Assembly: GCF_022846255.1 (NCBI RefSeq)
Contig: NZ_AP025682.1
Strand: one strand, 5' to 3'
Length of the DNA: 64,000 bases
Source of the DNA: Escherichia coli
GTDB taxonomy: Bacteria; Pseudomonadota; Gammaproteobacteria; Enterobacterales; Enterobacteriaceae
Within the stretch, counting starts at the first letter, position 1, and the number at the start of each line of letters is the position of its first letter. A model generated the notes under the pieces. That model saw nothing but the letters and a program-made list of their open reading frames with translations, had not been told where the DNA came from and did no database searches. Below are positions 18,930 to 18,995 of the stretch, in pieces. The position numbers and the translations under genes are program-made.

Positions 18930-18995
18930 TTTTACCCGAGAGGGCTGGGGTGAGGCTTTTCCCTCACCCAAACCCTCTCCATGTGGAGAGGGAGG
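18930..18995. repeat. Two tandem GC-rich stem-loops in the mtlA-mtlD intergenic region
   Basis: gggtgaggcttttccctcaccc and ccctctccatgtggagaggg, each a perfect short inverted repeat. Confidence 0.7.

Follow-up and report, generated by a model that had tools for sequence, protein, structure and literature searches.

Paired stem-loops between mtlA and mtlD as a probable diverged BoxC/PIT/TM_ECO copy with a putative role as RNA structure in the mtlADR mRNA

Introduction

What are two GC-rich stem-loops doing in the short spacer between mtlA and mtlD, and to which class of elements do they belong? In a first-pass annotation of a 64,000-nt stretch of the Escherichia coli contig NZ_AP025682.1 (hereafter the window), two perfect short hairpins were noticed in a 94-bp mtlA-mtlD spacer, and it was suggested that they could be an intra-operon attenuator or an mRNA-stabilising element that is REP-like in position but not in sequence. 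The answer that we regard as probable is that the two stem-loops together represent a diverged copy of the BoxC/PIT/TM_ECO repeats that was fixed long ago, and of which the RNA structure of the sense strand has been selected in the mtlADR mRNA.

The BoxC/PIT/TM_ECO family has been known since the 1990s, and only an association with genome instability has so far been assigned to it; the line of its BoxC and PIT naming reportedly runs through Bergler 1992 and Bachellier, and through Hoyne and Maher 2000/2002. BoxC and PIT (potential intrastrand triplex) are the earlier names for TM_ECO, whose strict pattern is composed of 9-nt blocks in the order 5'-CCCTCNCCC N3-6 GGGNGAGGG N3 GGGNGAGGG-3' (Holder et al. 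2015, PMC4666352). MG1655 carries 23 strict copies, and inverted pairs of a type-A and a type-B element are found at 5 of 18 K-12 loci, e.g. hrpB-mrcB and lldD-trmL (PMC4666352).

Results

Layout and folding of the spacer

The mtlADR operon is encoded by the window's minus strand (Table 1), and in mRNA sense the spacer begins with UAA-UACAAUCCCU-A CCCUCUCC-ACAU-A' GGAGAGGG-UUU-B GGGUGAGG-GAAAAG and continues with B' CCUCACCC-CAG-A2 CCCUCUC-GGG-UAAAAACAUUGAUGAAGGUUAAUACU-AUG. When read on the plus strand, hairpin 2 consists of GGGTGAGG at 18948-18955 and CCTCACCC at 18962-18969 with a 6-nt loop, and hairpin 1 of CCCTCTCC at 18973-18980 and GGAGAGGG at 18985-18992 with a 4-nt loop. Both stems are perfect over 8 bp, and the coordinates, stems and spacer length given by the first-pass annotation are borne out; what it had missed are the orientation of the operon, the third arm A2, and the fact that all arms are near-copies of one 9-mer, GGGWGAGGG, or of its complement. 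Outside the spacer, the window is ~5.6 kb longer than K-12 between lldP and yibL, and two open reading frames on the minus strand, one of them for a trimeric autotransporter adhesin, are included in Table 1.

Table 1. Features of the mtlA-mtlD spacer and of its surroundings in the window. Identity is the mean pairwise identity among 63 aligned orthologues, one per species.
Feature	Position	Strand	Description	Identity
Adhesin gene	10390-15021	-	1543-aa trimeric autotransporter adhesin with ESPR signal, YadA head, stalk and anchor domains	
Open reading frame	15065-15748	-	227 aa, no Pfam match	
mtlR	17173-17760	-		
mtlD	17760-18908	-	ATG start at 18908-18906	
Fourfold-degenerate sites		-	in adjacent mtlD codons	0.53
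mtlA-mtlD spacer	18909-19002	-	94 nt, intergenic	
mtlD initiation region	18909-18934	-	UAAAAACAUUGAUGAAGGUUAAUACU; A/U-rich; Shine-Dalgarno GAAGG at 18917-18921; co-conserved with the hairpin block	0.77
Arm A2 + GGG	18935-18944	-	CCCTCTC + GGG; small third hairpin or outer part of the 18-bp helix	0.91 (A2)
Linker CAG	18945-18947	-	reverse complement CTG is loop 2 of TM_ECO no. 8, which is classed as type B (Holder et al. 2015, PMC4666352)	
Arm B'	18948-18955	-	CCTCACCC; 3' arm of hairpin 2; compensatory changes in four pairs	0.905
Hairpin 2 loop	18956-18961	-	GAAAAG; 6 to ~25 nt across genera	0.38
Arm B	18962-18969	-	GGGTGAGG; 5' side of hairpin 2; would provide the third strand in the triplex motif	0.92
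Linker UUU	18970-18972	-	replaced in other genera by UUA, CUA or UUC; covaries at two of its three positions with the CAG linker (alignment pairs 32:72, 33:71)	
Arm A'	18973-18980	-	GGAGAGGG; 3' arm of hairpin 1; central purine block in the triplex motif; A2 is the alternative partner	0.99
Hairpin 1 loop	18981-18984	-	ACAU; differs among strains and genera	
Arm A	18985-18992	-	CCCTCTCC in mRNA sense; 5' side of hairpin 1; C-rich block when read as a TM_ECO-like motif	
5' flank of arm A	18993-19002	-	10 nt from the mtlA stop; insertion point of REP/BIME, ERIC-like and other sequences in other strains and species	0.32
mtlA	19003-20916	-	stop codon at 19003-19005	

Folding of the spacer RNA, which had been proposed as a check, supports a structured element: the mRNA-sense spacer folds into both hairpins and a small additional CCC-UCUC-GGG hairpin with -38.7 kcal/mol, as compared to a mean of -25.7 kcal/mol (sd 3.9) for shuffled spacers, which corresponds to z = -3.35, and none of 200 shuffles folds as well. 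There is, however, an alternative to the separate hairpins. The third arm CCCTCTC (mRNA sense, window positions 18944-18938) can pair with GGAGAGGG, and pairing of A' and B with B' and A2 via both linkers then generates a single 18-bp helix. The two folds of the window sequence have -37.2 and -35.4 kcal/mol, a gap of 1.8 kcal/mol, and over 63 species the gap is 0.5 kcal/mol on average (sd 2.3). This near-equality results from A and A2 being near-copies of each other. Neither of the folds touches the Shine-Dalgarno sequence or the start codon of mtlD. An Rfam scan of 5 kb around the site (E <= 10) gave nothing relevant, and its sole overlap with the spacer was a chance-level mir-2954 match with 18 bits, as compared to a gathering score of 96.

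Relationship to the BoxC/PIT/TM_ECO family

The window reads CCCTCTCC-ACAT-GGAGAGGG-TTT-GGGTGAGGG, which is the block order of TM_ECO. The strict pattern is not matched by the mtl copies of the window and of K-12, whose arms CCCTCTCC and GGAGAGGG have only 8 nt, and it is present in 24 of the 63 aligned orthologues, with copies from Enterobacter, Pseudocitrobacter and other genera among them. Under the relaxed ITxF criteria for a triplex (consecutive Y, R and R blocks, stems of 6-15 nt, loops of 1-6 nt, all triads allowed), the window copy is recognized as CCCTCTCC / ACAT / GGAGAGGG / TTT / GGGTGAGG with 8 allowed triads. When an nhmmer profile of the 23 K-12 TM_ECOs was run against the 64-kb window, only two matches were obtained, and both of them lie in the spacer, one per strand; these matches are weak (E = 0.2 and 1.2), with 18-20 nt aligned at 18980-18961 and, on the plus strand, at 18938-18955. 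The mtl copy is missing from the published K-12 list of 23 copies and from the flanking-gene table (PMC4666352).

When a canonical BoxC copy from an Enterobacter locus was used as query against 5,425 E. coli genomes, the median number of places hit per genome was 20, with the yiiM-cpxA spacer as one example of such a dispersed copy. The exact mtl block was not found dispersed in E. coli: it occurs at 1-3 places per genome and is a single-locus sequence, and the extra places are probably mostly the duplicated hairpin within the same spacer. We therefore treat the mtl hairpin pair, on the basis of its sequence features, as a diverged relative of the BoxC/PIT/TM_ECO family and not as a strict member.

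Two side observations concern canonical members of the family near this locus. Among the sampled loci, tandem arrays of canonical BoxC elements downstream of mtlD are found in three Enterobacter species only (L025, L029 and L034, at about 3360-3540), which shows a lineage-restricted spread of the family. In the window, the BoxC pair that K-12 carries between lldD and trmL (TM_ECO nos. 17 and 18; L088:320-446) is deleted, i.e. a 127-bp stretch is absent and a single arm, CCCCTCACCCC, is left as remnant near 6345-6358, with the intact mtl copy 12 kb away.

Conservation across Enterobacteriaceae

Sampling one genome per species yielded 80 mtlD loci of Enterobacterales, of which 66 have the A-A'-B-B'-A2 block, with Escherichia, Citrobacter, Salmonella, Klebsiella, Enterobacter, Kosakonia, Cedecea, Buttiauxella, Siccibacter, Franconibacter and Mangrovibacter among the genera that carry it. 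The arms have identities of 0.90-0.99, as opposed to 0.53 at the fourfold-degenerate sites of the adjacent mtlD codons (Table 1), and this difference indicates that strong purifying selection acts on the block throughout Enterobacteriaceae. An alternative cause of the sequence constancy could be gene conversion from other BoxC copies, but TM_ECOs have been reported to be absent from Salmonella, and none are listed for Citrobacter (Holder et al. 2015, PMC4666352), and yet both genera keep the mtl block.

The sequence between the mtlA stop codon and hairpin 1 behaves differently. In E. coli, the spacer exists in alleles of 94, 229 (K-12), ~319, ~419, 520 and 621 nt, and these differ by REP/BIME units of ~100 nt, next to which hairpin 1 is found duplicated. 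Most E. coli strains have REP/BIME sequences between the mtlA stop codon and hairpin 1, and the REP-free 94-nt allele is a minority form that was found in 11 of 59 sampled genomes, including O157:H7; its junction sequence is identical to that of the window in 441 genomes. Hairpin 1 of this allele has a 5' flank like that of the upstream copy in K-12 and a 3' side like that of the downstream copy, and it thus looks like a fusion of two repeats. As E. albertii shares the long form of the spacer, the short E. coli allele may be a secondary deletion.

In other genera, further inserts are found. Citrobacter werkmanii, C. youngae and strain RIT691 contain an ERIC/IRU-like insert of ~127 nt at the same insertion point, and most Citrobacter and Salmonella copies have a single REP-like palindrome, GCCCGGTGGCGCT..CCGGGCCTAC. 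These inserts fit the motif-associated instability that was described by Holder et al. Spacers of the Pantoea type (~91-99 nt), which are also found at two loci labelled Enterobacter (L069 and L076), contain an unrelated hairpin, GGGGCGGG-N4-CCCGYCCC, twice in direct orientation, and the two copies can also refold as a nested pair.

Which structure is conserved

Every one of the 63 aligned orthologues has hairpin 1, with a stem of 8-11 bp and a loop that varies in sequence and length. In the alignment, 93% of the cells of the long helix and 97% of those of hairpin 2 are paired. In the long helix, both partners have changed in six pairs, of which four belong to hairpin 2, and while this covariation is drawn from few lineages, no shuffle reaches it and slid controls are far lower. 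The linkers take part in this: the first linker pair is U.G, C-G or U-A, the second is U-A or C-G, and the third is mostly a mismatch. In Franconibacter (GGGAAAGGG/CCTCTTTCCC) and in C. freundii M21 (GGGTGAAAGG/CCTTTCACCC), B and B' have changed together, which keeps hairpin 2 and breaks the register of the A'-B triads.

The strand on which the pairing matters can be deduced from the non-Watson-Crick cells. The long helix has 67 G.U cells and 4 A.C cells, and hairpin 1 has 22 and 1, respectively. As A.C in mRNA sense corresponds to a wobble pair of the other strand, and as nearly all deviations are G.U in mRNA sense, this argues for selection on the sense strand. The asymmetry could also come from a tighter constraint on the G-rich arms. 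Judged from the alignment, the conserved feature is Watson-Crick pairing of the transcribed sense strand, and neither a triplex nor a G-quadruplex. A G-quadruplex motif (four G3+ tracts, loops of 1-7 nt) is found in 37 of the 63 orthologues and is absent from the window and from all Escherichia copies, where the first tract is GG, and a G-quadruplex was therefore rejected as the conserved feature. The invariance of the stems goes far beyond what pairing requires, and there may be a sequence-specific target, be it a protein, a triplex or a three-way pairing constraint. A separate observation was made in Klebsiella michiganensis, where hairpin 1 has an extra CT/AG unit in both arms (CCCTCTCTCC / GGAGAGAGGG); with this two-sided insertion hairpin 1 stays paired, and the long helix would bulge.

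Some other functions were considered and not retained. A small ORF that starts from the AUG in the loop of hairpin 1 was rejected, as this AUG is absent in K-12 (loop TCAC) and as length changes in the loop of hairpin 2 are not multiples of three. That hairpin 1 is coupled to ribosomes stopping at the end of mtlA is disfavoured, since inserts let the distance from the stop to arm A range from ~10 to >500 nt. Finally, no further copy of the 9-mer was found in the promoter region of mtlA, which disfavours an MtlR operator.

Discussion

How might the element work in the mtlADR mRNA? Its A-loop-A'-N3-B part would represent a type-A-like TM_ECO unit with 8-nt arms, and loop-B'-CAG-A2-GGG a second, inverted unit whose outer arm has been cut to GGG. 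Transcribed within the mtlADR mRNA, the block would form either two 8-bp hairpins and a small third one or a single 18-bp hairpin, and selection would act on this sense-strand pairing across Enterobacteriaceae, which is not the case with ordinary BoxC copies. A stable RNA structure at the mtlA/mtlD junction could block the 3'-to-5' exonucleolytic decay of the mtlA segment, or it could insulate the A/U-rich ribosome-binding region of mtlD from upstream sequence, or both, and in this way it may help to set the relative expression of mtlA and mtlD. An mRNA-stabilising role is plausible for such a putative element, as it would agree with both the strong conservation and the bias of the wobble pairs towards the sense strand. 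In the Pantoea-type spacers, which have a similar length, two unrelated GC-rich hairpins occupy the same position, and this suggests that what counts at the junction is a stable structure more than the sequence of BoxC.

What alternatives exist for a selected RNA structure? The block could in principle act at the DNA level, with an intrastrand triplex that forms when the non-template strand is single-stranded in the course of transcription or replication and that results in local rearrangement, and without a role in the mRNA. All eight A'-B triads are indeed allowed in the purine motif (G.G:C, A.A:T, T.A:T), the purine blocks are on the non-template strand, and a rearrangement hotspot lies just 5' of the block, with the length alleles and the duplicated hairpin A of E. 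coli and with the ERIC-like and REP-like inserts of other genera at this point; moreover, TM_ECO loci have been linked to instability (Holder et al. 2015, PMC4666352). We nevertheless consider this explanation unlikely. It is hard to see why an instability element should be kept at 90-99% identity throughout the family, the Salmonella and Citrobacter copies with GGTTGAGGG retain the block in spite of a weaker triplex, and triplexes have been found neither in vivo nor in duplex DNA, but only in vitro and for a canonical copy; in RNA, purine-motif triplexes cannot form (Holder et al. 2015, PMC4666352). The triplex is disfavoured as selected feature because the compensatory B/B' changes save the B:B' pairing at the expense of the triads. 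Rather improbable, in our view, is a function as bistable RNA switch or as platform for a protein, an sRNA or RNase III that tunes mtlD translation or transcript cleavage, even though the near-equal energies of the three-hairpin and long-hairpin forms over 63 species, the linker covariation that favours the long helix, and the near-invariance of the stems beyond the need for pairing could be taken as hints to it; either the two folds or the five repeated GGGWGAGGG/CCCTCWCCC blocks would be the feature that is recognised. An 18-bp helix also approaches the length of RNase III substrates. But the equal energies follow automatically from A and A2 being near-copies, neither fold includes the translation start signals, no ligand is known and no Rfam family matches, and in some genera A2 is less well kept (CCCCTGC, CCCGCCA, CCCTCAC), so that the long helix is disrupted in its outer part.

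Least probable of all, and indeed very improbable, is an intrinsic terminator or attenuator that lowers read-through into mtlD, which the first-pass annotation had suggested and in favour of which the two very stable GC-rich hairpins between the cistrons can be cited. The sequence after hairpin 1 is UUUGGG and that after hairpin 2 is CAGCCC, so that neither is followed by a U-run, and a consensus scan of both strands of 18909-19002 detected no terminator-like site (GC-rich hairpin with a U-rich tract within 0-2 nt); a promoter-like site was not detected in the spacer by consensus scan, either. PIT elements were reported from earlier work to act neither as promoters nor as terminators and to leave RNA polymerase unaffected (Holder et al. 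2015, PMC4666352). Read-through is needed for the downstream repressor gene mtlR, and among the 3' ends in the Term-seq supplement of Adams et al. 2021, which come from conditions in which the operon was uninduced, there is none on the sense strand of the mtlA-mtlD spacer. The same data set contains an antisense RNA 3' end inside mtlD at K-12 coordinate 3775490 (-). The literature covered on the mtlA-mtlD spacer, RNase III and Term-seq gave nothing specific.

For the RNA structure that we prefer, i.e. the diverged BoxC/PIT/TM_ECO copy selected in sense-strand mRNA, the consequence for annotation is modest: the hairpins are to be regarded as the relic of a repeat family and not as a terminator. 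The mtl copy lies in a well-studied inducible operon, and with its 90-99% identity and its compensatory, strand-specific changes it offers a tractable test of an RNA role. A more far-reaching idea, which we put forward as speculative and rather unlikely, is that this is the first BoxC/PIT element with a selected function, either domesticated or an ancestral "founder" copy, that controls the stability or processing of the mtlADR transcript. If this were true, the equilibrium between two hairpins and the long hairpin would determine the MtlA:MtlD ratio, and the element would have been retained throughout the history of all Enterobacteriaceae, even in genera that are reported to lack other copies.

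Comparison with known elements

With an intrinsic terminator, the element shares a GC-rich stem-loop 3' of a stop codon, and it differs by the lack of a U-tract and by being missed in the terminator scan. In the case of REP/BIME elements, the resemblance goes further. These occur in intercistronic spacers, and malE-malF is the paradigm for their role in mRNA stabilisation; like them, the mtl block places a stable palindrome in the transcribed spacer of an operon for sugar utilisation, and a protection of the upstream mRNA is a plausible role for it. There is, however, no similarity to the REP consensus (of the GCCGGATG...CTTATCCGGCCTAC type), no REP is present in the spacer of the window, and the copy number of REP/BIME at the mtl spacer varies between strains, whereas the BoxC-like block is constant. 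The earlier ideas of a "REP-like" element and of a stabiliser are therefore partly right: the position is that of a REP element, and REP/BIME adjoins the block in most E. coli, but the hairpins belong to a separate palindromic family.

The closest likeness is to TM_ECO itself, with CCCTCTCC(C), a loop of 3-6 nt, (G)GGAGAGGG, a 3-nt loop and GGGTGAGGG in a GC-rich, intergenic setting; the Escherichia mtl copy deviates in its arms of 8 instead of 9 nt and in its loop 2, which is TTT instead of TTA or CCG. The K-12 hrpB-mrcB pair is arranged as A-loop-A'-CCG-B / 18 nt / B'-TAA-A-loop-A', and the mtl layout A-A'-TTT-B / loop / B'-CAG-A2 mirrors it, except that the second unit lacks the outer G-arm, of which GGG is left. 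By its sequence, the mtl block resembles in its arrangement an inverted TM_ECO pair in which an outer arm has been shortened. TM_ECO loci differ between E. coli strains (Holder et al. 2015, PMC4666352). Ordinary BoxC copies come and go, and it is only in its near-unchanged retention across the whole family that the mtl copy is unusual.
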